A DNA stretch of 11,358 bases from Pseudomonadota bacterium (GTDB taxonomy: Bacteria > Myxococcota > JACRCW01 > JAFGSX01), in assembly GCA_043821645.1 (NCBI GenBank), contig JBDRCO010000050.1, positions 1-11,358 of the forward strand, in the 5' to 3' direction. Within the stretch, counting starts at the first letter, position 1; each line of letters opens with the position of its first letter. Below the pieces are notes generated by a model that saw nothing but the letters and a program-made list of their open reading frames with translations, was not told the origin of the DNA and made no database searches. Positions 1 through 11,358 of the stretch are shown piece after piece. Position numbers and translations under genes: made by a program.

Positions 1-149
1 TCGTCCGTCGAGCCGGTGTCGACGACGATGATCTCGTAGCCCGAAGTCGGCCACTCCAGCAGATCGAAGCTGCGCAAGGTGCGGCCAAGCAGCACGCACC
101 GATTGCGTGTTGGAATGACGACGCTCACCTTGCAACGCGTCGCCGTCAT
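1..149 (-). CDS. Glycosyltransferase family 2 (GT-A), N-terminal fragment; runs off the left edge of the window
   Basis: Not in the ORF track. Hand translation from ATG at 149 gives MTATRCKVSVVIPTRNRCVLLGRTLRSFDLLEWPTSGYEIIVVDTGSTD, the typical GT2 'SVVIPTxNR...EIIVVDxGSTD' N-terminus. ATGA overlap with the upstream stop (146-148). Confidence 0.9.
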   Translation of the reverse strand, partial: MTATRCKVSVVIPTRNRCVLLGRTLRSFDLLEWPTSGYEIIVVDTGSTD

Positions 150-1966
150 GAAGGATTCCGCCGCGAACCGGATCCCACGGCACCCTCCTGGGCGGTGGCT
201 GGGTCGCTCTCAACTTCGAGACGGGCCTGCGCTTGTGTCGAGGTCTCCTCGACCTCATCACCTGCCCTGTGCATTACCAGGCTGGTGCCTGCGATGTGGT
301 ACAGTCTGTGTGTTGCCGAAAGTTCATCGATTGCCTTCATGACACCTGGCGCATATGGCGCGTAGTCATGCCACATCACCACACCACCAGGACAGACCAT
401 GGACAAGGCAGAGCGGCTGTCCACACTCACCTGGCGATAGTGGTGGCAGGCGTCAACCAGGATGAGGTTCATCTGGTGTCGGTAAGGTGTGAAGTCGAAG
501 GTCAGCGAGTCACCGAGCAGCTGGACGATGCGTTCGGCCTCGGGCGTGCCCACGAATCGTCTCCCGACCTGCTGCGGGTACACGTCGAGCTCCGCGACTT
601 GCGGTCGGCTTCCCTCGCCAGCCGCCTGAACCGGGAGGTCGAGCGTGAACACGCGCTGAGCACCGTTTGCGGCGAGCTGGCGAGTGGTCAGGCCCTCGTA
701 GGTTCCGAACTCGAACGTGATTTTCGGCTTCAAGCATCGCACGATTTGCATGAATACGGCGAGCTCGTGAATCATCAGGCCCCCAACGGTTGGCACAAAT
801 CCAAGTAGCTGGATCGGACCCGGACGGAACCCAGGCAACACACTCGCTAATTTGTCCTGACTCAGAACGAGCGGTCGCCGCGGGCGAGACGCGATCGGAG
901 AGCAGGAATGGTCGTCCCGGTCAGCTTCTTGACCACGGATGAGCCCCACATGCGGTAGTCGCGAGTGGAGGTGGCGAACGGTCGCGCCAAAGGCGCGCCG
1001 AAGTGTCATGTCGAGAGCGCTCTTTCCAACCTGTTGGGCAGCTTGCATCATGACGATGTGACGGATCCTCGCGCGATCTGGAGCGCGCTCCAGGCCCAGC
1101 CGCTCGGCACATTCTGCGGCGAGAGATGGTTCGATGGTGATTCGTTTTGCATCGAGTTCGAAGTTGAGTCGCGACTGCCAATGTGGCGTTTGTTTATCGC
1201 CAAGGGTGAGTAAATCATAGGTGCCAGCTGGCCGGTTGGAGTCGCCCCTGTTGACGAACAGTGGGCTCGAACCGTAGATGAAGAACGGGATGCCCAACTC
1301 GATGGAGTAAAAGGCGCAAGATCCAACGACATTGCTCGTGCAGTACCGATGCGAAGACAAGATGTGGTAAAAAGAATCCACGAAATGTGGGTCGAGATGA
1401 TGACCCGCAGTGACGACGGGGATTCCGCGTTCGAGAAAAGGCTTCGCAGCGCCGCGTTTGATATCCAGCCAGTAGAGGCCGATGCTCACGGGATGGAACT
1501 CGAGAGGCAAGTCGAGCAATGCCTCGGCATAGTCCTCCCAGCGAGTATCAACCTCGATCAGCTCAGTGGAGTGGATGGGGAAGGCGATCGTCCCAGTTCG
1601 TCCACGCTTCGCAGCGTACCCGGCTTTCCGGCGGTAGTGGACAAAAGGCGAACCTGTGACGACGGAATCTCTTCCAGTCTCGTCAAGAATAGCACGACGT
1701 CGGCCTTCATTCACGACGAGTAGAGGAAGGGAGGTTCGGCGATCCCCTTCATAGACCTCATCTACTACAGGTACGCCATGATCAACGTGAACGAGCAGCG
1801 GGAACCACGAAGGTAGCGACAGCCAGGACCGGAAGCACCGGCCAATGGAGTACCATTCATGGTCCAGCCTTGAAGGTGGTAACTGCTCGTATTTACGAAT
1901 GCGAGCAAGCGCGGCAGTGAGGTCTGGTGCGCCTCCCGGTATAATTCTGAATCGTGCTGAGTTCAT
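146..1966 (-). CDS. Two-domain protein (606 aa): unassigned N-terminal domain (putative nonulosonate glycosyltransferase) fused to a C-terminal class I SAM-dependent methyltransferase (Methyltransf_24-like)
   Basis: Start moved from 2086 to ATG 1966 (MNSARF), which has an ATGA overlap with the pseI stop and GAGGA just upstream. C-terminal motifs: FEFGTYEGLTT (SAM motif I), TLDLP, ILVDACHHY, PGGVVMWHDY. The N-terminal function (FPIHST, TSNVVGSCAFYSIELGIPFF) is inferred only. Confidence 0.7.
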   Translation of the reverse strand: MNSARFRIIPGGAPDLTAALARIRKYEQLPPSRLDHEWYSIGRCFRSWLSLPSWFPLLVHVDHGVPVVDEVYEGDRRTSLPLLVVNEGRRRAILDETGRDSVVTGSPFVHYRRKAGYAAKRGRTGTIAFPIHSTELIEVDTRWEDYAEALLDLPLEFHPVSIGLYWLDIKRGAAKPFLERGIPVVTAGHHLDPHFVDSFYHILSSHRYCTSNVVGSCAFYSIELGIPFFIYGSSPLFVNRGDSNRPAGTYDLLTLGDKQTPHWQSRLNFELDAKRITIEPSLAAECAERLGLERAPDRARIRHIVMMQAAQQVGKSALDMTLRRAFGATVRHLHSRLPHVGLIRGQEADRDDHSCSPIASRPRRPLVLSQDKLASVLPGFRPGPIQLLGFVPTVGGLMIHELAVFMQIVRCLKPKITFEFGTYEGLTTRQLAANGAQRVFTLDLPVQAAGEGSRPQVAELDVYPQQVGRRFVGTPEAERIVQLLGDSLTFDFTPYRHQMNLILVDACHHYRQVSVDSRSALSMVCPGGVVMWHDYAPYAPGVMKAIDELSATHRLYHIAGTSLVMHRAGDEVEETSTQAQARLEVESDPATAQEGAVGSGSRRNPS

Positions 1967-3024
1967 GAATCCTCGTCGAGATCGCTCCAGGTCAATGGGG
2001 AGCCCCTCAATATTGTCCTGATCGCCCGGGCCTGAAGGACGCGTTCCAGGTAGCGAGGTGGAAGCCCATTCCCTGGTCGGATGCATCTTGTGTTTTGGGT
2101 GGTGAAGCGCTCGCCAGCTTGTACATCCCGTGTACAGAAAAGGGATCGTCTGAATACAGTACTCGGCCTCTCGGCCTCACTCTGTTCGTAACAGATCTCT
2201 CCCAGGGATCGTTCGGCGATGTGCGCCGCTGTAACCATTTCAGCAAACTCATGGGGTTCAAGCGAAAAGGCGCTATCCGGACCCGGATCGCCGCGCGAGA
2301 GAGTCAGGTGCTTTTCGATCACCTTGGCGCCCACTGCCACCGCAGCTACGGCCACCGTGGTTCCAAGTGTATGATCTGACAGGCCTGCCACCACTCCAAA
2401 CCGCGCAGCAAGGTCTACAATGGTCCGCAAGTTGGCTGCCGCTGGAGACGCTGGGTAGGCACTTGTGCACTTGAGCAAGCACAGACCAGGATCGGCATCG
2501 CCCCACACCTTCCGGATGGACGAGACAGCAAGTTCTATTTCCTCCAACGTCCCCATTCCTGTCGACAGGATGATGGGTTTGCGGATTGCCGCCACATACT
2601 CGATCAACGGGATATCCACCAGCTCGAAGCTGGCGATCTTGTAGACTGGCACGTCGAGCTTTTCGAGAAAGTCGACGGCAGTGCTGTCGAACGGTGTGCT
2701 GAAGAAGTCCAGCCCGAGTTCGTGGGCAAGGTCGCGCAGCGGCGCGTGCCATTCCCAGGGCGTGTAGGCCTCTTTGTAGAGGTCATACAGAGTTCGGCCG
2801 TCCCACAGGCCGCCCTGGATCTTGAACTCGTCACGATCGCAGTCGATGGTCATGGTGTCCGCGGTATAGGTCTGCAGCTTGATGGCGTCGGCACCGGCCT
2901 GCGCCGCCGCGCGCACGAGCTCCATCGCGCGCTCGAGGGAACCGTTGTGGTTGGCCGAGAGCTCGGCGATCACGTAGACGTTGTTTTTATCGCGGATCCT
3001 GTCCATGACTGAGCCTGGGTTCAT
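1963..3024 (-). CDS. pseI: Pseudaminic acid synthase (NeuB family with C-terminal SAF/antifreeze-like domain)
   Basis: IAELSANHNG, IKLQTYTADTMTID, LYDLYKEAYTPWEWH, KIASFE, LKCTSAYPA, GLSDHT, IEKHLT and C-terminal RRSL...IRPGNGL. AGGA lies 6 nt before the ATG. Clustered with pseB, pseC and pseG. Confidence 0.93.
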   Translation of the reverse strand: MNPGSVMDRIRDKNNVYVIAELSANHNGSLERAMELVRAAAQAGADAIKLQTYTADTMTIDCDRDEFKIQGGLWDGRTLYDLYKEAYTPWEWHAPLRDLAHELGLDFFSTPFDSTAVDFLEKLDVPVYKIASFELVDIPLIEYVAAIRKPIILSTGMGTLEEIELAVSSIRKVWGDADPGLCLLKCTSAYPASPAAANLRTIVDLAARFGVVAGLSDHTLGTTVAVAAVAVGAKVIEKHLTLSRGDPGPDSAFSLEPHEFAEMVTAAHIAERSLGEICYEQSEAERPSTVFRRSLFCTRDVQAGERFTTQNTRCIRPGNGLPPRYLERVLQARAIRTILRGSPLTWSDLDEDS

Positions 3025-3032
3025 GACCTATC

Positions 3033-3716
3033 CTAGCGCAGGGTCCGGATGACCTCGAAGGCCTCGGCAGCCTCGACGCCGACGACGCTGCCCCAGCGCC
3101 TGGCAACAGCGGTCAGAGCCTCGGGGGAGCGTGGGTGGGGGAAAGCGCGCGATTCCCTGCTATAGATGGCCATCGCGTCGAGCTTTTTGTCCAGGGTCGT
3201 GTGAACGTCATAGAAGACTGCCGGTCTGAAAATGGGCTCGATGCGCTGAAATGCCCACTCCGTCGAAGAGGGGATCTCGAAGCAGAGTAGCTCCTTCACA
3301 CTGGCCCCGGGATCGGGTCGACAGGCTGTCAGGGTCGCCTGGAACAGCACACGGTGGTCCACGTTGAGGTCACCCGGGTGATGGGTGAAGACAAGTGAGG
3401 GAGAGAACTCATCCAGCAAGGACTCCACGCGCTTTACCACGTCCAGCAGGTCCAGGCTGTCGAACCTATTGTCGGGCAGGCCAAAGCAAAGAACCGAGGT
3501 CGCCCCGAGAATTCGGCCGGCCTCTACGGCCTGTATGCTGAGCGTCCTCGTCTCTTCTTCAACTGCCTGCTCACGTTTCGTATGTCGCGATGTCGCACCC
3601 TCACCGAAGATGCACACCTGGACCTGGTGGCCTTCTTCGGAGAGACGGCGAATCGTTGCACCGCAGCCAAGAACTTCATCGTCGGGGTGAGCTGCCACGA
3701 CCAGGACCTTCATCAC
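3033..3716 (-). CDS. PIG-L/LmbE family metal-dependent de-N-acetylase
   Basis: VVAAHPDDEVLGCG (HPDD metal motif), THHPGDLNVDH (DH motif), FPHPRS and AEAF C-terminus. The start is GTG 3716 or the adjacent ATG 3713 (AGGAGG-C-GTG-ATG), overlapping the upstream stop. Confidence 0.92.
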   Translation of the reverse strand: MMKVLVVAAHPDDEVLGCGATIRRLSEEGHQVQVCIFGEGATSRHTKREQAVEEETRTLSIQAVEAGRILGATSVLCFGLPDNRFDSLDLLDVVKRVESLLDEFSPSLVFTHHPGDLNVDHRVLFQATLTACRPDPGASVKELLCFEIPSSTEWAFQRIEPIFRPAVFYDVHTTLDKKLDAMAIYSRESRAFPHPRSPEALTAVARRWGSVVGVEAAEAFEVIRTLR

Positions 3717-4429
3717 GCCTCCTGCTTCTGTGTGATGGATACCTGCGCCGTCAGCCTTCCTGCCTCGAGCCGGGCGTCGCGGAACTCGAACCGCAGGCTG
3801 CCCTGCTCGACAAACGCATGCGGGTACCCATCGGCATCGAGCATGCGGATGATGTCATGGAGCTGATCGAGCGACTCGTCGCCGGTGATGAGGCTCTGGC
3901 TGGGTTTGCGCCGCCTGAAAACCACCACCTCGCCCTGCTGTGGCGTCGGCTCAGGGTTCTGTTCGACGATTTGGCGAATCATGGCTGCGGAGAGCACTCC
4001 CGCCCTGACATAGATATCCTGCGCGCGGCCTTGTAATGACAAGGGTTCCTTCAAGTACACCGGCCCGGCGTCGAAGTCCTCGACCATGCGCAGAGCCGTC
4101 AACTGTGTGTCATGGTGGCCGCGCTGGATAAGGTTTTGTAGGGGACTGCCACCGCGGCCATAGGGGACGTCGGTCATGTGAAAGCAGACGCACTCGAAGC
4201 GATCAAGGATCTCCGACGGCACCCTGGCCGACCAGTGAAGAAAGAACACGTATGTGGGAGCTAGCTCAAGGAGCCTCGACAGGGTCAGCTCGGATTCGTT
4301 GCCAATAAAAGTCCAGCGCCCGGGCAAAGTTGCCAGGTGAGCGTCGAACGTTGCGCGATTCCACGGGCGACTTCCCGCCACGACGTAGGCCAGGCGAGCA
4401 CCCTCGGTAATCTTGAAGGACTGCTTCAT
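3713..4429 (-). CDS. Formyltransferase 2 (Fmt-like, N10-formyl-THF dependent; FHMTDxPxGRGGSPLQNL type), putative sugar N-formyltransferase
   Basis: FFLHWS, CVCFHMTDVPYGRGGSPLQNLI, DFDAGPVY, DIIRMLDADGYPHAF. Start corrected to ATG 4429 (ATGA overlap with the upstream stop at 4426-4428); 238 aa. Confidence 0.85.
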   Translation of the reverse strand: MKQSFKITEGARLAYVVAGSRPWNRATFDAHLATLPGRWTFIGNESELTLSRLLELAPTYVFFLHWSARVPSEILDRFECVCFHMTDVPYGRGGSPLQNLIQRGHHDTQLTALRMVEDFDAGPVYLKEPLSLQGRAQDIYVRAGVLSAAMIRQIVEQNPEPTPQQGEVVVFRRRKPSQSLITGDESLDQLHDIIRMLDADGYPHAFVEQGSLRFEFRDARLEAGRLTAQVSITQKQEA

Positions 4430-5235
4430 ATTTTTCTCTTGCCGCCAGGCACGGGATCGGTGCTGGTCGTCGATGGTAGTCGCTCGTCTGGCTCCAGCTT
4501 GATGCTCACCCACACGCGCCTACCGCGGTCCTCGAAGAAAGCACCGCGGTAGCCGGCAAAGGTCCGCGCCCGTATTCGATCGATCAGGTCGCCCGCACGC
4601 ACCAGGGCGTCCAGATCGATCCGGTCCACGGCATCGACGTCCTTCCGCTGATGGGTCGTTCCCTGAGAGCGATCCTGAGGTCTGCGGACAGCGCGCTCCT
4701 CGACAATAGACTCGAAGTGCAACTTGAACAGCGAGAGCGCATCCTGCTCCAGCCGGCGGTACAGGGTCTCGCCCGTGTCCCACGAGAGAACCTCGGTCTT
4801 GTGCTGGGCGATGATGTCTCCGGTGTCGAGGGTTTGATCCATGTAGTGCAGAGTCACGCCTGCAGGACTGCCGTCGACGATGCTCCAGACATTGGGGTAA
4901 TTCCCACGATTGAAGGGCAGATAGGCCGGATGCAAATTGATGACGCCGAGCCTGAAGCTGTTCAGAATCTTTGGGCGGATCAGGTAGTCGAATAGCACCG
5001 AGATCCCCAAGTCGGCCTTGAGCGATATCAGCCGCTCACGCACCTCAGGCTGGCGCAGCGTCGAGCCATCGAACACGCGTTCCTCTGGGCAGCCGCTGAG
5101 CTCGATGATCTCGGAGAGGTACTTTTGGCGGGAGGGCGGGTGGACCACCAGGGCTTCGATTGCCTGACCCTGCTCCCGAATCCAGCGCAACACTTCGCGC
5201 CCGAGCCAGTTGTTGGCAAAGAAGACGATCTTCAT
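4426..5235 (-). CDS. Formyltransferase 1 (Fmt/PurN fold), putative UDP-4-amino-sugar N-formyltransferase
   Basis: INLHPAYLPFNRGNYPNVWSI (catalytic N-x-H and HxSLLP-like motif), GVTLHYMDQTLDTGDII (catalytic Asp), IRARTFAGYRGAFF. Start corrected to ATG 5235 (MKIVFFANN; ATGA overlap with the pseG stop); 269 aa. Confidence 0.87.
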   Translation of the reverse strand: MKIVFFANNWLGREVLRWIREQGQAIEALVVHPPSRQKYLSEIIELSGCPEERVFDGSTLRQPEVRERLISLKADLGISVLFDYLIRPKILNSFRLGVINLHPAYLPFNRGNYPNVWSIVDGSPAGVTLHYMDQTLDTGDIIAQHKTEVLSWDTGETLYRRLEQDALSLFKLHFESIVEERAVRRPQDRSQGTTHQRKDVDAVDRIDLDALVRAGDLIDRIRARTFAGYRGAFFEDRGRRVWVSIKLEPDERLPSTTSTDPVPGGKRKI

Positions 5236-6290
5236 GTTGCGCATACCCCTGCGAGCTCCATCTCGGTGATCACGCGCTGACATCCGTGACCATCGACCAG
5301 CTTTCGGGCCCGCTCGCCCATTTCCTGCCGCCGGTCGCGATCCTCAGTCAGCTCTCGTAGTTGCGGGAGAAGACTGCGTGCGCACAACTCACTATGCCAG
5401 CCAAGATCCCTGGCGGCTCCCGCCGCCCCGGCGCTGGACGCAATGGGACGCTGGTTGTCGGCGACAGAGACCAGCAATGATGGGATTCCGAAGTGCATCA
5501 GCTCCCAGGTGGTGCTGCCGGCGGCCGAGATGGACAGGTCGGCTAGGTCGAGCGTCGCAGACATGTCCTGCACGTTCTCCAGGACACTGGCCCGCAGCAG
5601 GGAAGCCAGTCGCTCGAGTTCGAACAAGTGGGCTGTGCTTTCGCGGCTGCCCAGGACGACTGTGAGCTCCAGGTCTGGTGGCTCTCGCACCAGAGCGCCA
5701 AGTACCCGTGCGCACAGGCCCTGCGGATCGCTGCCGCCGGCGATCACCAGAAGGTTCCGGCCACGACTTCGTTGCTCCGGTGTCCTGGGTCTAGCCTGAC
5801 GCAGTGAGCGGCGCAGAAGCACGTGACGTGGTCCCAACAGGAGCGCCGATCGTTTCCTGAACTGGGGGTAGAGTTGCTCGCGGGCATGTAGGTTCTGATT
5901 GAGAACCAGGTCCGCGTGAATCGGCTCTCCTGTACCTTGGTCGTCGATAAACAGGACACGCGCCCTGGCCTGGGCGAGTTGGAGCCGATACGCGGCGTTC
6001 AGGCGATAGCCATCGAGCACGATCCAGCGAGCATTGTGCGCCTCGCTCTGTGCGACGGTCTGTTGTGCATCGTCATCGCTGCCAACCTCGGCCTTCACCC
6101 TCACAAGGTGGATGTCTTCGTCGGCCAGTAAATGCTCGAGTTGTTCACTGAGTTCGGCAGCCAGCCACGTGATACGGAGCCCCGAATCCACCAGGGCCTG
6201 GGCCAGGGCCAGACAGCGCATGAAGTGGCCGGAGCCGATCGCAGGGCTTGCGTCGACTCTGAACAGCACGTCGGCAGGCGCGTGGTTCAC
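5232..6290 (-). CDS. pseG: UDP-2,4-diacylamido-2,4,6-trideoxy-beta-L-altropyranose hydrolase (GT-B fold)
   Basis: LFRVDASPAIGSGHFMRCLALA (catalytic His), VLDGY, FIDD, VLNQN, GGSD, ISAAGSTTWEL, VADNQ, VDGHG. Start corrected to GTG 6290 (GAGG 5 nt upstream; GTGA overlap); 352 aa, with no fused GNAT domain. Confidence 0.9.
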   Translation of the reverse strand: MNHAPADVLFRVDASPAIGSGHFMRCLALAQALVDSGLRITWLAAELSEQLEHLLADEDIHLVRVKAEVGSDDDAQQTVAQSEAHNARWIVLDGYRLNAAYRLQLAQARARVLFIDDQGTGEPIHADLVLNQNLHAREQLYPQFRKRSALLLGPRHVLLRRSLRQARPRTPEQRSRGRNLLVIAGGSDPQGLCARVLGALVREPPDLELTVVLGSRESTAHLFELERLASLLRASVLENVQDMSATLDLADLSISAAGSTTWELMHFGIPSLLVSVADNQRPIASSAGAAGAARDLGWHSELCARSLLPQLRELTEDRDRRQEMGERARKLVDGHGCQRVITEMELAGVCAT

Positions 6291-7012
6291 AGATGCCTCT
6301 GCCTGACCAAGCGATTGAGTTCGCGCACATTGGGATGCTGGGTCAGGTACCTGCGTACCTCGCGCCAGGGCCAGCGACCCTGGGGATCCGCCTCGTACAC
6401 AGCCCTTACCAGCGCCAGGTCTTCTGGCGTGTCCACCGTCCATCGCTCGGCTGAGTGGTCTTCGTCGCCATACAGACCGCGCACTGTGAATTTATCGGGA
6501 TGCTGCCACAGGTAGGTCGTCACGTGCTCTCGGTACACGGGCAGCTGACCCTCGCGCCAGGCCCGATGCAACGCGTCGATGCGAAACGCCTCGCAATCGA
6601 GTCCGCGGGGGAAGCTGCGGGGCTCCACGATGTTGCTGGCGTAGTCTGTCTCGCTTGCGCTGAGCAGCAGGTTCACGACCTGATCGACGAGTTCGGGATC
6701 GATCAACGGGCAGTCCGAGGTGATGCGCACCACGAGGTCGGCTCTATGCTCCTGCGCGGCGCGCCAGTAACGATCCAGCACGTCGGTCTCGTCTCCCCGG
6801 AAGCAGGCCCAACCACGGTCGCTGCAGAGCTTCGCGATGGCATCGTCCGCTGCCAACTTGGAGGTGGCCACCACCACCTTGTCGACGCGGGTGGCCCGCA
6901 GGGTGCGCGACACCACGCGCGCCAGCATGGGCTGGCCCGCGAGGTCCATGAGCACCTTGCCCGGCAGCCGCGTCGATCCCATGCGGGCCTGGATGATTGC
7001 CACCGTCGTCAT
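6287..7012 (-). CDS. spsF: SpsF-type cytidylyltransferase (CMP-nonulosonate synthetase, presumed functional equivalent of PseF)
   Basis: MTTVAIIQARMGSTRLPGKVL, RGDETDVLDRY, VRITSDCPLIDP, FPRGLDCE, REHVT, RWTVDTPEDL. Start corrected to ATG 7012; 241 aa. Confidence 0.88.
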   Translation of the reverse strand: MTTVAIIQARMGSTRLPGKVLMDLAGQPMLARVVSRTLRATRVDKVVVATSKLAADDAIAKLCSDRGWACFRGDETDVLDRYWRAAQEHRADLVVRITSDCPLIDPELVDQVVNLLLSASETDYASNIVEPRSFPRGLDCEAFRIDALHRAWREGQLPVYREHVTTYLWQHPDKFTVRGLYGDEDHSAERWTVDTPEDLALVRAVYEADPQGRWPWREVRRYLTQHPNVRELNRLVRQRHL

Positions 7013-7013
7013 C

Positions 7014-7036
7014 GAGATCTCACTTGAGGAGATCCC
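7014..7036 (-). promoter_or_regulatory. Intergenic stem-loop over the spsF translation initiation region
   Basis: mRNA GGGAUCUC-CUCAAGU-GAGAUCUC forms an 8-bp stem (one G-U) with a 7-nt loop, starting 1 nt after the methylase stop and ending 1 nt before the spsF AUG. Function is not demonstrated. Confidence 0.4.
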
Positions 7037-7037
7037 A

Positions 7038-7661
7038 TCAGTAGGCCCGTTTCTCGAGCATGAACCAGGTGCTGTCATCCAGCGCGAATTCGGGATCCCG
7101 GTGGTAGACAAAGCCGTAGTCGACCAGCCGAAGGTCACCAAAGCGGTCGAGGAGTTCGCCTGCGAAGTCGCGCTTGAACAGGCGCTCAGCGTGCCCTCGG
7201 TACGGCACGCTGGTGGGGGTCGGGTTGTAGTACTCGCAGACCATGAGGTAGCGGCGGCTCGCCCGATACATGACGTCGTAGGCGGCGGGAAGCGCGTCCG
7301 GGTTGATGTGGATCAGGACGCCCTTGGTGAAGACCAGGTCCCACTGGAGCGGGCTTGCGAACTCGAGCAGCGACCCATTGTGCACCTCGACGCGCTCTTG
7401 GCGACGGAGCTCTGCGGCTGCCGAGGAGTTGATCTCCACCGCGGTCAGTCGTGCATGTGGCAGGAGCTGCGCGAGCGCAGCCAGATTGAGGCCGATGTTG
7501 GCGCCTAGTTCTAGCACGGAGGACACCTTGTCGGTCGCGTGCAGCGCACGGGCAAACAGCGACAGGTTGCTTGCCACGAGCGAGCTGCCCCGGTTCCTCT
7601 CGATGTAGTCCTGGCCGAACTCGCCAGCCCAGAAGCGCTCCTGTTCGGTCGCGAATGGCAT
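7038..7661 (-). CDS. Pseudaminic acid biosynthesis-associated methyltransferase (class I SAM)
   Basis: TEQERFWAGEFGQDYIERN, VLELGANIGLNL, VEIN, DLVFTKGVLIHINP, EYYNPTP, YRGH..RLFKRDFAGE, DYGFVYHRD, WFMLEK match the Pse-cluster methylase family. AAGGA Shine-Dalgarno upstream. Confidence 0.9.
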   Translation of the reverse strand: MPFATEQERFWAGEFGQDYIERNRGSSLVASNLSLFARALHATDKVSSVLELGANIGLNLAALAQLLPHARLTAVEINSSAAAELRRQERVEVHNGSLLEFASPLQWDLVFTKGVLIHINPDALPAAYDVMYRASRRYLMVCEYYNPTPTSVPYRGHAERLFKRDFAGELLDRFGDLRLVDYGFVYHRDPEFALDDSTWFMLEKRAY

Positions 7662-7678: not shown

Positions 7679-8932
7679 TCAGGATCGGCCCGGGACCGGG
7701 CGAACGGCGGGGGGCCTGCCCTTGACCAAGGCCGCGATAACGAGATCGACGTCGGCGTCCGTCATTGCCGGGAACATGGGCAGGCTCAGGCAGCTTGCGT
7801 AGAATAGATCGGCACCGGGCAGGCCGCCTTCGGGGAGGATCGCGTCGCGCTGTTCGGGCTGCCAGTGCACGGGGATGTAGTGGACCTGGGCCAGGATGCC
7901 AGCCGCATGCAGGCTCAGGAAGAGATCCTTGCGCCTCTGCGCCAGGCCCAGCAGGCTCTCTCCTTTCGTGGGCAGCAGGCGGACCACGTAGAGATGATAG
8001 CTGCTGCGCCGGTCCGGAATTTGCGCGAGCGGCTCCAGCCAGCTCTTGAATGATTCCTGTGACAGAGCGCTGTCGTAGGCTGCTGCCAGCGCGCGCCGTC
8101 GCTGCACGAAGCGCTCGAGCTTGGCCAGCTGCGACAGGCCCAGGCTGCAGTTGAGGTCGGGCAGCCGATAGTTGAAGCCCAGCCTGGCTTGCTCATAGTA
8201 CCAGGGGCCCACATAAGCCTCATCGACGCTGCGCGCAAACTCCCCTGTGCGCTTGTGGATGCCATGGCTGCGCAGGTCTTGCACGCGGCCATGCACGTCG
8301 GCGTGCGGCGAGAGCAAGGCCCCGCCCTCGCCCGTGGTGATGTGCTTGACCGGGTGAAAGCTAAGGATGGTGGCGTCGGCCAGGCTGTGCCCTGCGATGC
8401 GGCACGCCTGTCCATCGACGTCGAGGGTTGCCCCCAGCGAGTGTGCCGCGTCCTGCAGCAGCCTCATGTCGTTCGCCCGCGCCAGCGCGTTCAGCGCTGG
8501 CAGGTCCGCGGGTTGTCCAGCAAAGTCCACAGGGATCAGCAGGCGAGGTCGCAGGCCCTGCGCGCGGAGCTGCGGTACCAGGGCCTCCACGCTCTGTGGC
8601 GCGATCAGTCCTGTTGCCGGATCCACGTCGGCCAGGGCCACGCGGCCTCCCGCGTAACGGATCGCATTGGCGCTGGCAACGAAGGTGACGGGACTGGTGA
8701 TGCCGACGTCACCCGGGCCCAGACCCAGTGCCAGGGTCGCCAGGTGCAGGGCCGCGGTGCCGTTGCTGACCACGGCGGCATGGGACGCGCCCGTCGCTTC
8801 GCACAGGGCCGCCTCGAACTGCTCCACCCGCGGCCCCTGGGTCAGATTGTCGTCGCGCAGACACGCGAGCACGGCTTTCACGTCCTCGTCGTCGATCCAC
8901 TGACGACCGTATGGCAGCGCTCTCTGATTCAT
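7679..8932 (-). CDS. pseC: UDP-4-amino-4,6-dideoxy-N-acetyl-beta-L-altrosamine transaminase (DegT/DnrJ/EryC1/StrS, PLP dependent)
   Basis: LPYGRQWID, LTQGP, SNGTAALHLA, TFVASAN, QDAAHSLGA, SFHPVKHITTGEGG (PLP Lys), WYYEQARLGFNYR, QVHYIPVH. Directly follows pseB with an ATGA overlap. Confidence 0.93.
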   Translation of the reverse strand: MNQRALPYGRQWIDDEDVKAVLACLRDDNLTQGPRVEQFEAALCEATGASHAAVVSNGTAALHLATLALGLGPGDVGITSPVTFVASANAIRYAGGRVALADVDPATGLIAPQSVEALVPQLRAQGLRPRLLIPVDFAGQPADLPALNALARANDMRLLQDAAHSLGATLDVDGQACRIAGHSLADATILSFHPVKHITTGEGGALLSPHADVHGRVQDLRSHGIHKRTGEFARSVDEAYVGPWYYEQARLGFNYRLPDLNCSLGLSQLAKLERFVQRRRALAAAYDSALSQESFKSWLEPLAQIPDRRSSYHLYVVRLLPTKGESLLGLAQRRKDLFLSLHAAGILAQVHYIPVHWQPEQRDAILPEGGLPGADLFYASCLSLPMFPAMTDADVDLVIAALVKGRPPAVRPVPGRS

Positions 8933-9960
8933 CTCGAAGCGTCCAGCGTCCAGGCGAATTTTGGATCGACGTGCAAGCGAATCAACTCGCGAAGCTCATC
9001 GACCGTGAGCCACTGGTCGTTGTGCAGGCTGTCATAGCTGAAGCCAGGCACGCACGGGTGACCGCCATTCTCGCGAGCGTACCTCCCCGTGTCCCAGAGT
9101 TGTGCGCTTGGGCAGATCACGTAACGCTGTGGGAACTCCAGACTGTTCTGGGCATCGGTCTCGGTGATCATCATTTCATGTAATTTCTCGCCTGGGCGTA
9201 CACCGATGATCTCTGTGCGGCAGCCCGGTGCCACGGCCTCTGCCACATCAGTGATTCGAAAGCTGGGGATCTTTGGCACAAATATCTCGCCTCCCCACAT
9301 GTATTCGAGTGCAAACAGAACTTGGTCCACACCCTGATCCAGGGTGATGTTGAATCGAGTCATATCCGGGCTTGTGATGGGAATCACCCCCTCGCTTCGC
9401 TTGCTCATAAACAGTGGGATGACACTTCCTCGGCTGCCCAAAACATTGCCATAACGCACCACGGAGAGTTTAAGATTGCGTTTGCCTTTGAAGTGGTTGG
9501 CAGCTACGAAAAGCTTGTCTGAACAGAGCTTTGTGGCGCCATACAGGTTGATGGGGGCTGCCGCCTTGTCAGTGCTCAGTGCGACGACGCGCTGTACTCC
9601 TTGGTCCAGGCATGCGGTGACTAAATTTTGGGCACCCAGGATGTTGGTTTTGATGAATTCGAACGGGTTGTATTCAGCGGCTGGCACCTGCTTCAACGCG
9701 GCTGCATGTACGACGATGTCGATGTCCTCGAGCGCCCTGCGCAGGCGCGGCTCATCGCGCACGTCTCCGAGAAAGAACCGCGTCTTCTGGCGGTGTTCGG
9801 GCGATAAAGTTTGGGCCATCTCGTACTGCTTGAGCTCGTCTCGACTGAACACGACCAGGCGCCGGGGTTTATGTCGCCGCAGCACCACATCGACAAATTT
9901 CTTCCCGAAGGAGCCTGTGCCTCCGGTGACAAGCACCCCTTTGTCGTCCAGGAAGCTCAC
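8929..9960 (-). CDS. pseB: UDP-N-acetylglucosamine 4,6-dehydratase (inverting)
   Basis: VTGGTGSFG, FSRDELKQ, HAAALKQVPAAEYNPFE, ALSTDKA, NLYGATK, RYGNVLGSRGSV, MTRF, GVRPGEKLHE. GTG start with GGAGG upstream, overlapping the wzt stop. Confidence 0.96.
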   Translation of the reverse strand: MSFLDDKGVLVTGGTGSFGKKFVDVVLRRHKPRRLVVFSRDELKQYEMAQTLSPEHRQKTRFFLGDVRDEPRLRRALEDIDIVVHAAALKQVPAAEYNPFEFIKTNILGAQNLVTACLDQGVQRVVALSTDKAAAPINLYGATKLCSDKLFVAANHFKGKRNLKLSVVRYGNVLGSRGSVIPLFMSKRSEGVIPITSPDMTRFNITLDQGVDQVLFALEYMWGGEIFVPKIPSFRITDVAEAVAPGCRTEIIGVRPGEKLHEMMITETDAQNSLEFPQRYVICPSAQLWDTGRYARENGGHPCVPGFSYDSLHNDQWLTVDELRELIRLHVDPKFAWTLDASR

Positions 9961-11261
9961 GCCTCCTCCCTTCGGTTCCAGCCAGGGACATGAATGGTCC
10001 CGTCCGGATGCACCCAGTGATACGGCAGAAGGACCGGAGCACTGTGCTCGATGAGTCCATCCGCCTCAATCCCATGCATGTCGAGATCCGCCGCACCTCC
10101 CGCAATTCGGAATGTGCCAATTTGGGACGCTGTCGGAATGAGGAAATGACGGCCGCTCTGATCCCGTGCCCCGAGGCTAATGTAATAAGTCTGAGGTAGA
10201 AGCATCGGCTTTTCGAACACGCAGCGCAGGCACCCGTCGCCGCTTATCTCGAGAGGGCGAAGACCGTCGAGGAGCATGTTGGCCCCACAGAAGTTCCCGG
10301 TCTCGCTGGCCAGGCCGATCCAGAAATGAGGCAAGGCGATGGGCTTGCCGGCGCGATAGTGCACTTCGATCGTGATGTCCTGCTTGACCTGCAGTGTTCT
10401 TGTTTCCCTGCCACTAGGATCGAGCACGCACACTCGACCTATCACGAAATCGAATTCGGCACTGGATGCGACGGCCCCAGACGAGTTCGCGGAAGACTCC
10501 AAGTATAGCCTGACAAGCTCAGTACTGATTCCTTGCTGGCGCAGCAGACCGCCTTCGATCCAGAAGGAACGCTGGCAGATTCGGGTCACAGCGTTGAGGT
10601 TGTGACTGACAAACATGACCGTCCGCCCCCCCCTCGCCACATCCCCCATTTTCCCCAGACATTTCTTCTGAAACGCCACATCCCCCACCGCCAGCACCTC
10701 GTCGACGAACAGGATGTCGGTCTCCAGGTGCGCTGCCACGGCGAAGGCCAGCCGCACGTACATGCCGCTACTGTAGCGCTTGACCGGGGTGTCGATGAAC
10801 TTGTCGATCTCGGCGAAGGCCACGATCTCATCGAATTTCTTGCGGATCTCGGCGCGATGCATGCCCAGGATGGCGCCGTTGAGGAAGATGTTCTCGCGGC
10901 CGGTGAGCTCGGGGTGAAAGCCGGTGCCGACCTCGAGAAGGGAGCCGACGCGGCCGTGGATGCGCGCCTCGCCCACGGTGGGCTCCGTGATGCGGCTGAG
11001 GATCTTGAGCAGGGTGCTCTTGCCCGCGCCGTTGCGGCCGATGACGCCCACCACCTCGCCGGGCATGACGTCGAAGCTCACGTCCTTGAGGGCCCAGATC
11101 TCCTCGTCGGCGGGCACCGGCTTGCCGAGCTGCTGCAGGCGGCGCAGGGGTGCCAGCGCCATCTCGGTGACCACCTCGGTCAGGCGCTTGTAGGGCGCCT
11201 GCTTCGCGCCGATGCGAAAGCGCTTGCCGAGTCCCCGGACCTGTATGGCGGGCTGGGTCAC
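9957..11261 (-). CDS. wzt: O-antigen/polysaccharide ABC exporter ATP-binding subunit with C-terminal Wzt_C-type (carbohydrate-binding) domain
   Basis: Walker A GRNGAGKST, LLEVGTGFHPELTGRENI, signature YSSGM, Walker B/D-loop ILFVDEVLAVGD, H-loop VSH, and a roughly 170-aa beta-rich C-terminal extension. Start corrected to GTG 11261 (GAGGAG upstream, 7 nt after the wzm stop); 434 aa. Confidence 0.93.
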   Translation of the reverse strand: MTQPAIQVRGLGKRFRIGAKQAPYKRLTEVVTEMALAPLRRLQQLGKPVPADEEIWALKDVSFDVMPGEVVGVIGRNGAGKSTLLKILSRITEPTVGEARIHGRVGSLLEVGTGFHPELTGRENIFLNGAILGMHRAEIRKKFDEIVAFAEIDKFIDTPVKRYSSGMYVRLAFAVAAHLETDILFVDEVLAVGDVAFQKKCLGKMGDVARGGRTVMFVSHNLNAVTRICQRSFWIEGGLLRQQGISTELVRLYLESSANSSGAVASSAEFDFVIGRVCVLDPSGRETRTLQVKQDITIEVHYRAGKPIALPHFWIGLASETGNFCGANMLLDGLRPLEISGDGCLRCVFEKPMLLPQTYYISLGARDQSGRHFLIPTASQIGTFRIAGGAADLDMHGIEADGLIEHSAPVLLPYHWVHPDGTIHVPGWNRREEA

Positions 11262-11268
11262 GCTCTCC

Positions 11269-11358
11269 TCACACGCGGTCCGCGAAGGTGCGCTCGGTGC
11301 GCCTGAAATAGTACGCGCCACCGACGAGCAACAGCAAGGTCACGCTGGTCGACACCAG
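11269..11358 (-). CDS. wzm: ABC-2 type polysaccharide exporter permease, C-terminal fragment
   Basis: Not in the ORF track. Hand translation gives LVSTSVTLLLLVGGAYYFRRTERTFADRV*, a hydrophobic helix followed by the typical Wzm 'FRRxERxFAD' tail, immediately upstream of wzt. Confidence 0.88.
   Translation of the reverse strand: MVSTSVTLLLLVGGAYYFRRTERTFADRV

Follow-up and report, generated by a model that had tools for sequence, protein, structure and literature searches.

Which enzyme attaches pseudaminic acid (Pse) to the glycans that carry it? Many bacteria bear pseudaminic and legionaminic (Leg) acids on their flagella, capsules, O antigens and S-layers. To our knowledge the attaching enzymes are few (Maf, FlmG, KpsS1 and the TagB-like Tannerella proteins), and the transferase is unassigned for most Pse-containing polysaccharides. 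The question is raised again by an 11,358-nt stretch of a genome from the Myxococcota (assembly GCA_043821645.1, contig JBDRCO010000050.1; hereafter the window), in which a gene directly following pseI encodes a 606-residue protein that joins an N-terminal domain of an unnamed family (the N-domain) to an S-adenosylmethionine (SAM) methyltransferase. At about an even chance, we favor the view that this target protein is a transferase of pseudaminate (or another nonulosonate) from its cytidine monophosphate (CMP) donor, representing a new glycosyltransferase family of GT-B-like fold that is coupled to a sugar O-methyltransferase and serves a Wzm/Wzt-type pathway. The donor (CMP-Pse), the acceptor and the site of methylation are those that we infer. 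The novelty lies in a large family without a name, habitually paired with methyltransferases, which we regard as a strong nonulosonate-transferase candidate. The gene and its parts are as follows.

146..1966, minus strand: whole gene for the 606-aa two-domain protein, delimited by uninterrupted translation, ATGA overlaps and a continuous coding GC pattern.
1037..1966, minus strand: N-domain, residues 1-310, an unnamed GT-B-like family and candidate nonulosonate (Pse) transferase (homologue search, AlphaFold2 model, Foldseek).
1778..1780, minus strand: codon of His63 (within D62-H63-G64), the sole invariant residue among 116 aligned family members.
1565..1585, minus strand: 'AFPIHST' block, residues 128-134, within the family motif GT[IV]AFPxH[ST], one of the two patterns used to retrieve loci.
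1271..1345, minus strand: 'YCTSNVVGSCAFYSIELGIPFFIYG' block, residues 208-232, a strand-helix-strand with N212, P227 and G232 that holds the pattern EMGIPFF[IL].
767..1036, minus strand: linker, residues 311-400 (isoelectric point (pI) 11.4; 12 Arg + Lys versus 6 Asp + Glu; 8 Pro, 9 Gly).
287..766, minus strand: SAM methyltransferase domain, residues ~401-560 (Pfam Methyltransf_24 at 419-535, bases 362-712).
149..286, minus strand: acidic C-terminal tail, residues 561-606 (pI 4.6; predicted local distance difference test (pLDDT) score <50 over most of it; absent in relatives).

With respect to genomic company, we retrieved 63 loci from species-representative genomes with two conserved peptide patterns derived from a 20-sequence alignment. 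These loci span more than 10 phyla (Cyanobacteria, Elusimicrobia, Bacteroidota, Spirochaetota, Patescibacteria, Planctomycetota, Pseudomonadota, Desulfobacterota, Bacillota, Fibrobacterota, Verrucomicrobiota, Melainabacteria and Actinomycetota), and tblastn of the window proteins against them gave the following counts.

NeuB/PseI-like gene: 38/63 loci.
PseC: 32/63 loci.
PseB: 29/63 loci.
Cytidylyltransferase: 24/63 loci.
PseG: 14/63 loci.
Pse-associated methylase: 9/63 loci.

Of the 63 loci, 47 have one or more of the four main markers (NeuB/PseI, PseC, PseB, cytidylyltransferase), and a NeuB/PseI gene is found in 26 of the 32 that measure 18 kb or more. An enrichment of homologue neighborhoods for neuB-family genes had been set beforehand as a check by a first-pass annotation of this DNA, and it is borne out by these counts. 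Since PseI is encoded at ≥45% identity in 27 loci and a more distant NeuB-type synthase in 11, the N-domain is linked to nonulosonates in general, and mostly to Pse. Moreover, the PseI match ends at most 451 nt upstream of the domain gene, on the same strand, in 11 loci, as it does in the window, and the homologues on Azospirillum plasmids lie within NeuB-family clusters. In the window and 5 fully scanned loci, no member of the Maf, Capsule_synth, Glyphos_transf or sialyltransferase families was found, and the only other recognizable transferases were of glycosyltransferase families 2 (GT2) and 4 (GT4).

The family that shows this linkage is large and nameless. We searched 1.84 billion representatives exhaustively with HMMER, counting family members as clusters at 50% identity, and obtained 1554 proteins at E≤1e-3, of which 915 pass 1e-10 and 146 pass 1e-30; most are stand-alone proteins of ~300-350 aa. 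The N-domain had no match in Pfam, NCBIfam, PHROG or the Protein Data Bank (PDB; by sequence and by profile, none below E 1), and a search of phage genomes gave no name. When the 116 aligned members were compared with Pfam one by one at E≤1, no family was matched by more than 3 of them. In the protein Atlas, the nearest clusters are all unnamed (0.97-0.98); named clusters, which we treat as leads, reach at most 0.86 and consist of DUF6716, clusters in which a share of members has Glyphos_transf or Capsule_synth, and O-antigen families of Leptospira. RefSeq labels the Azospirillum plasmid homologues 'hypothetical protein', and the one relative with a name, 'FkbM family methyltransferase', takes its label from the fused domain. 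Word searches of open-access full texts found no description of the N-domain family or of a Pse-capped glycan dependent on an ABC transporter.

In addition to His63, positions conserved in ≥90% of the 116 sequences are Y39, P52, R112, G125, F129, H132, L150, L153, P154, P159, D168, G188, F195, Y200, N212, P227 and G232. The two peptide strings that had been quoted from the N-domain, 'AFPIHST' and 'YCTSNVVGSCAFYSIELGIPFFIYG', are present and fall on the best-conserved blocks of the family, in which G125, F129, H132, N212, P227 and G232 are nearly invariant.

A second regularity is the pairing of the N-domain with methyltransferases, which we followed with a partner-domain scan of 42 N-domain relatives of ≥400 aa. 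Of these, 23 are fused to a methyltransferase, namely Methyltransf_21 (FkbM) in 13, Methyltransf_24 in 7 and a Methyltransf_23/11-type domain in 3 (one N-terminal); the others carry an Antibiotic_NAT acetyltransferase (1), tetratricopeptide (TPR) repeats (3) or no recognized partner (15). An N-domain joined to an aminoglycoside-3-N-acetyltransferase-like domain is seen in P0074. On a quick FastTree tree of 167 domain copies, rooted at the midpoint, well-supported branches force at least 7 changes for FkbM, 5 for Methyltransf_24 and 3 for the third group, each change being a gain or a loss, and the methyltransferase-fusion labels cluster no more than they do in shuffles. An alignment search for longer fused forms, limited to 675-2000 aa, found none, which is weak evidence.

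The pairing extends to the retrieved loci. In L001-L004 the N-domain has FkbM as its fusion partner, and in L006 Methyltransf_24. Elsewhere the methyltransferase is encoded by a gene of its own, either immediately upstream of the domain gene (L010, L012, L014, L031) or immediately downstream (L012, L015, L016, L018 with a TylF-type gene on the opposite strand, L022, L053); L044 has it as the next annotated gene, past a 75-aa opposite-strand open reading frame (ORF), and L040 at a distance of two genes. The closest syntenic clusters are those of Nodosilinea (L003/L004), which run Wzt(+Wzt_C)-PseB-PseC-cytidylyltransferase-PseG-formyltransferase-PseI-[domain+FkbM]-GT2 and thus have the window's gene order with another methyltransferase fold in the same slot. 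Because this one slot is filled by different methyltransferase folds, we conclude that the pairing of domain and methyltransferase is selected for, and that the particular methyltransferase family is not. Two complete tandem copies of the N-domain in each of P0021 and P0027, along with a fusion to a GT2 domain (L033:6811-8652), look like the behavior of a glycosyltransferase module.

With respect to structure, an AlphaFold2 model of the N-domain built on the family alignment (pLDDT 91.6, pTM 0.90) folds into two lobes, a small one whose three strands fall at about residues 59-61, 82-84 and 101-103, and a large Rossmann-like one with strands at 124-128, 160-163, 206-211, 228-230 and 236-239. 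A Foldseek search of the PDB returned, among the matches listed (ranks 1-50), GT-B proteins throughout (probability 0.54-1.0, best E 2.7e-4), specifically HepE, WaaG, MshA, TarM (GT4), SenB, starch synthases, GT1 enzymes and UDP-GlcNAc 2-epimerases. In a viral structure library, glycosyltransferases rank first, a TagF-like protein and pyruvyl transferases lie lower, and none reaches 1e-3. The GT-B fold that had been proposed for the N-domain is therefore supported by the matches listed, at TM scores of 0.26-0.39 and with only three strands in the N-lobe. On the strength of the model, the likeness to GT-B appears real but distant, and GT-B includes non-transferases.

The conserved residues occupy suggestive positions in this model. 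His63 comes right behind strand 1 of the small lobe, GTxAFPxHS follows the first strand of the large lobe, and TSNxxGS...E.GIPF forms a strand-helix-strand. These are positions that we take to be the usual GT-B sites of catalytic base and donor, and the 'YCTSNVVGSCAFYSIELGIPFFIYG' block is presumably comparable to a generic GT-B donor-binding segment. A catalytic role for His63 would be consistent with this placement.

The C-terminal half of the protein was expected to be a SAM methyltransferase, and this expectation held. The Methyltransf_24 match covers profile positions 2-105 of 105 (38.7 bits versus a cut-off of 26.3, E 2.1e-9), and E419, G421, G425, D443, H508, Y510, D516 and H533 are invariant in 9 Methyltransf_24-fused relatives. 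By analogy, E419-x-G421-xxx-G425 and D443 would correspond to the SAM loop and to the acidic residue after strand 2. Foldseek gave 246 PDB matches at E≤1e-3, those listed being all methyltransferases. The top matches are O-methyltransferases (OMTs) of the catechol/CCoA type (SafC, COMTD1), and sugar O-methyltransferases are also present (SpnH, rhamnose 4'-O; MycF; MeT1, mycobacterial methylmannose polysaccharide), with the tRNA N-methylase MnmM ranking similarly. As judged from the modeled fold, the likeliest chemistry is sugar O-methylation, with N-methylation as a possible alternative.

Turning to the gene itself, the frame is stop-free over 149-1966 on the minus strand (606 residues), with its stop codon at 146-148, as had been claimed. 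The longest ORF in this frame starts at 2086 and would give 646 aa, the additional 40 residues lying inside pseI; no homologue aligns over that extension. The ATG at 1966 seems the better start, given its ATGA overlap with the pseI stop (1966-1963), a GAGGA 4-8 nt upstream, and homologue alignments that begin at residue ~11-39. At its other end, the target-gene stop overlaps the start of the downstream GT2 gene, again as ATGA (149-146). Owing to these overlaps at both ends, pseI, the target gene and the GT2 gene are probably a translationally coupled trio. The proposed layout of N-domain, basic linker and methyltransferase likewise agrees with our delimitation (residues 1-~310, 311-400 and the Methyltransf_24 match at 419-535).

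An assembly or sequencing artefact that joined two genes into this frame is, in our estimation, very improbable. Its supporters could cite the linker, which has an odd composition and is not conserved, its length and sequence differing between fused relatives, as well as the GC content at third codon positions (GC3), which is 0.60 in the N-domain versus 0.74 in the methyltransferase part. Against this, the GC1>GC2<GC3 coding signature is unbroken through the linker, both other frames contain stops there, and the same domain order recurs in independent relatives (7 fused to Methyltransf_24 and 13 to FkbM, and loci L001-L004 and L006). Given that 23 of the 42 long relatives are fused to methyltransferases of three Pfam groups and are scattered over the family tree, the fusion is, at the level of sequence, real and recurrent. 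The two halves may differ in history, as the GC3 values would allow, and GC content along the window dips to 0.55-0.57 at 1001-2000 and 9001-9500 from 0.60-0.67 elsewhere.

The remaining genes of the window, all on the minus strand in one tight cluster, supply the context for a mechanism.

9957..11321, minus strand: Wzt, ABC-transporter ATPase with a C-terminal carbohydrate-binding domain (ABC_tran E 1e-20, Wzt_C E 9.2e-12).
10149-10445, minus strand: Wzt_C domain, Wzt residues 293-391 (Pfam).
8929-9960, minus strand: pseB (PseB 499 bits, above cut-off).
7679-8932, minus strand: pseC (415.7 bits, just below the cut-off of 423.5).
7038-7661, minus strand: pseudaminic acid biosynthesis-associated methylase, Pse_Me-ase (TIGR03587, 290 bits, above cut-off).
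Within 6287-7141, minus strand: cytidylyltransferase (CTP_transf_3).
Within 5232-6443, minus strand: pseG (PseG 211 bits, above cut-off).
4426-5283 and 3713-4513, minus strand: two formyltransferase-like genes (Pfam).
3033-3716, minus strand: PIG-L-type deacetylase (Pfam).
1963..3024, minus strand: pseI (TIGR03586 PseI 471 bits versus a cut-off of 340; Pfam NeuB + SAF).
1..149, minus strand: start of a family-2 glycosyltransferase, clipped by the window end (Glycos_transf_2 E 7.3e-7 over the 49 residues present).

The domain gene is followed by a GT2 gene in L003, L004 and L006, in the same order as in the window. Two formyltransferase-like genes and a deacetylase are present, and no PseH of the Gcn5-related N-acetyltransferase (GNAT) type was found in the window; from this gene content, the product of the cluster is probably an N-formylated (or otherwise re-acylated) Pse derivative. 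Several starts in this region also call for adjustment. The pseG and cytidylyltransferase ORFs overlap and have long N-terminal extensions, with family matches that begin at residue 58 and residue ~44, respectively, and the true starts are probably downstream of the first in-frame start codon. Of the two formyltransferase-like proteins, one carries Formyl_trans_N and N_formyltrans_C and the other only a C-terminal Formyl_trans_C_2 match; given the overlap at 4426-4513, the second ORF probably starts later than listed. The Pse-associated methylase is a second methyltransferase in the cluster.

In the mechanism that we propose, the upstream genes would make a CMP-activated Pse derivative, which the N-domain would bind and transfer to an undecaprenyl-linked glycan built by the GT2 enzyme and others. 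The predicted cleft for this reaction would be lined by His63 and Arg112 from the small lobe and by the GTxAFPxHS and TSNxxGS...E.GIPF blocks from the large lobe. The tethered SAM methyltransferase, which resembles cation-dependent OMTs, would then modify that sugar or its neighbor, and Wzm/Wzt would export the finished chain. Wzm itself lies outside the window and was seen in L022 and L044.

A more specific and more tentative possibility is that the methylated Pse is a chain-ending cap read by the carbohydrate-binding domain of Wzt. The carbohydrate-binding module (CBM) of Wzt binds the terminal epitope in every studied terminated O antigen, as stated in the excerpted account of PMC11231755, and a Wzt with such a C-terminal module is encoded in the window (Wzt_C E 9.2e-12), which makes a capping role plausible. 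Wzt_C is also found in L003, L022 and L040. In all 8 loci with a Wzt of ≥45% identity, a methyltransferase is fused, adjacent or at most 2 genes away. The broadest form of the proposal, which we consider unlikely as a whole, is that the N-domain founds a widespread family of CMP-nonulosonate transferases whose methyltransferase-coupled form installs a methylated Pse cap read by Wzt, with no coiled-coil ruler.

A number of observations weigh against the transferase reading and its capping extension. For the cap, terminators carry a characteristic coiled-coil ruler, according to the excerpted text of PMC11231755, and we saw no long coiled-coil-like helix in the modeled residues 1-310 and 380-606 of the target protein, the linker being rich in Pro and Gly. 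In addition, the window Wzt is 57% identical to that of Nodosilinea (L003:2970-4334) over residues 20-320, but the carbohydrate-binding parts of the two proteins do not align by BLASTP, although both match Wzt_C; this could reflect different caps or mere fast divergence. The Wzt of L044 shows no Wzt_C at E≤1e-5. For the methyltransferase, the window domain is the most divergent of the nine Methyltransf_24-fused relatives, and its model is of moderate confidence (pLDDT 62; core 73-89; residues 444-489 poor). For the N-domain, no sequence-profile link to known GT-B families was found. Specifically, hhalign gave probabilities of 0.4 against PseG and 0.6 against GT4, compared with 0.3-3.8 for unrelated controls, the partner alignments having been built from related loci (15 sequences for PseG, 5 for GT4). 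No biochemical data were found for any member of the N-domain family.

The genomic linkage has its exceptions as well. By tblastn, 16 of the 63 loci lack a nonulosonate marker; some of these are short contigs, and Pfam shows a cytidylyltransferase in one of the 16 (L049) and a UDP-GlcNAc 2-epimerase in another (L032). Long Saprospiraceae/Aureispira loci carry the domain gene amid housekeeping genes, and two Verrucomicrobiota loci hold a 558-565-aa form with no Pse genes nearby. In the Saprospiraceae loci L034, L038, L039 and L046, the domain gene comes right after a DUF6962 gene, with no nonulosonate genes within 10 kb. Such marker-free loci are what one might cite for the alternative that the N-domain is a glycosyltransferase with some other donor, acting on or beside Pse (for example by adding the next sugar or by polymerizing), with another protein transferring Pse. 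We regard this as rather unlikely. The best structural neighbors of the N-domain are indeed NDP-sugar enzymes of GT4, GT1 and GT5 and not CMP-sugar enzymes, and ORFs without a family in related clusters could hide a Pse transferase (L022:11675-13105, L040:14056-15081, L006:6752-8929). What speaks for Pse as the donor is that the linkage is to nonulosonate genes and to no other single sugar pathway, with the domain gene directly after pseI in 11 loci, and that it covers both Pse-type (27) and other NeuB-type (11) loci, as specificity on the donor side predicts.

The structural likeness is similarly open to challenge. Only 3 Foldseek matches reach E≤1e-3, TM scores among the matches listed are 0.26-0.39, and the better-fitting alignments span one lobe (~160-190 columns). 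Known structures of CMP-ulosonate transferases are not among the matches listed (ranks 1-50), and UDP-GlcNAc 2-epimerases, which are not transferases, rank level with glycosyltransferases. The epimerases, at Foldseek probabilities of 0.99-1.0, raise the alternative of a GT-B protein that transfers nothing, being instead hydrolase- or epimerase-like or a binding module by which the methyltransferase is offered CMP-Pse or the end of the glycan. The GT-B superfamily does include PseG and the NeuC-type hydrolases, and what the domain is most consistently paired with is a methyltransferase, whatever its fold. We nonetheless think this improbable, for the window already encodes PseG, 14 loci have it together with the domain, and most family members are stand-alone proteins of ~320 aa that lack a methyltransferase. 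The invariant His, and the Arg, His, Asp and Asn that are nearly so, suggest a catalytic more than a binding function, and the tandem copies and GT2 fusion resemble glycosyltransferase modules. The co-occurrence in the window and 14 loci also led us to reject the N-domain as a replacement for PseG.

Among characterized systems, the target protein would by analogy work most like the Pse/Leg transferases of Tannerella forsythia. As described in the excerpted text, this organism's Pse transferase is encoded by a gene of GT-B type that sits directly downstream of the CMP-Pse locus, and Tanf_01245/TFUB4_00887 (TagB-like) lie just downstream of the CMP-Pse/CMP-Leg locus, as the target gene does in the window (PMC5420450). 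The same account places a methyltransferase gene between locus and transferase in strain UB4, and has the terminal nonulosonate moved to the glycan (PMC5420450). The T. forsythia enzymes are there assigned to TagB/GT-B by sequence, with D/E-D/E-G and HP motifs and a length of 445 aa (PMC5420450), whereas the window domain has no Glyphos_transf match, is shorter (~310 aa) and is fused to a methyltransferase. The Glyphos_transf family (PF04464) had no Pfam match in the window protein or in 116 relatives, and the leads toward TagB/TagF are weak, comprising a phage TagF-like model at E 2.5e-2 and, at 0.84, an Atlas cluster with Glyphos_transf in 19% of its members.

If the cap idea holds, the target protein may also work like WbbB (GT99) and the Klebsiella pneumoniae O4 enzyme ORF7 (GT137), which the available excerpts describe as terminators of ABC-transporter-dependent O antigens that use CMP-activated 3-deoxy-D-manno-octulosonate (CMP-Kdo) (PMC9587256; PMC11231755). 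The likeness lies in a ulosonic-acid transferase within a Wzm/Wzt cluster whose Wzt bears a CBM, in the 'highly modified' GT-B-like architecture reported for WbbB, and in an acidic keto-sugar cap read by the transporter, as far as these excerpts go (PMC9587256; PMC11231755). The window protein differs in its proposed nine-carbon donor, which is Pse and not Kdo, in showing no coiled-coil ruler in its modeled parts and in its fused methyltransferase. No sequence match to WbbB or ORF7 was found, and neither is among the Foldseek matches listed. WbdD, a kinase/methyltransferase terminator, is similar in uniting a methyltransferase and a module that modifies the glycan end in one polypeptide, and its long coiled coil and membrane-binding C terminus, together with its partner, methyltransferase family and domain order, set it apart from the window protein, going by the excerpted descriptions (PMC3482155; PMC11231755).

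The flagellin Pse/Leg transferase FlmG offers a further comparison. In the excerpts consulted, it combines TPR repeats with a ~290-aa GT-B module that sets donor specificity (PMC7591256; bioRxiv 10.1101/2022.03.25.485807). Some N-domain relatives likewise have TPR repeats (P0049, P0081, P0126, L059, L060), and a TPR gene lies upstream of the domain homologue on Azospirillum plasmid p5. Unlike FlmG, the window protein has no TPR repeats, and those of the relatives are C-terminal and not N-terminal; the two glycosyltransferase modules are likened here by description only. The Maf flagellin transferases (DUF115) had no Pfam match in the window protein or 116 relatives.

Two other groups of proteins are relevant. 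WsaE of Geobacillus stearothermophilus carries methyltransferase and rhamnosyltransferase modules and acts in an ABC-transporter-dependent assembly; the window protein differs from it in partner domain, methyltransferase family (Methyltransf_24) and domain order. KpsS and KpsC (GT107) have a GT-B-like fold and use a CMP-ulosonate donor, and KpsS1 of Acinetobacter baumannii is reportedly a Pse transferase. The first-pass annotation had seen a KpsS/KpsC-like segment in the N-domain, and this part of it did not stand. We rejected kinship after finding no Capsule_synth (PF05159) match in the window protein (E≤0.01) or in 116 relatives (E≤1) and no structure of the KpsC/KpsS/WbbB type among the Foldseek matches listed (ranks 1-50). 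The one connection is a lead from a language model, scoring below 0.9, to DUF6716 clusters, 21% of which also have Capsule_synth.

In terms of significance, the N-domain family, whose members are labelled 'hypothetical protein' or named after the fused methyltransferase, provides a testable candidate for the missing attachment step, and it has culturable carriers in Nodosilinea, Desulfopila, Desulfovibrio cuneatus and Desulfosporosinus nitroreducens. Were the transferase reading true, the N-domain would qualify as a new glycosyltransferase family. Were the cap reading true, the protein would be the first chain terminator with a nine-carbon sugar, and one without the usual coiled-coil ruler. 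The export checkpoint formed by terminator and CBM would then widen from Kdo and methyl/phosphate groups to modified nonulosonates, and glyco-engineers would have a transferase and a methyltransferase in a single chain.

Several smaller features of the related loci are recorded here. On Azospirillum brasilense plasmid p5 (L064, 10722-13020), a TPR-repeat gene is directly upstream of the domain homologue, in a cluster with NeuB-family genes and four class I methyltransferase genes, a layout like that of a split FlmG (TPR + glycosyltransferase). A second NeuB in L044 (14281-16530) is fused to a xylose-isomerase-like TIM barrel (AP_endonuc_2), and stand-alone AP_endonuc_2 genes directly adjoin the domain gene in L049, L051 and L054. 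Domains from Bacillota (Desulfosporosinus, Sporobacter) are extended at the C terminus by ~110 aa that have no Pfam match, for a total of ~408-435 aa (L020, L021, L025, L027-L030, L032, L035). This extended form may be a variant for protein or S-layer glycosylation; its gene comes right after a GT2 gene in L021, L027-L030 and L035, several of which also hold pseB/pseC.

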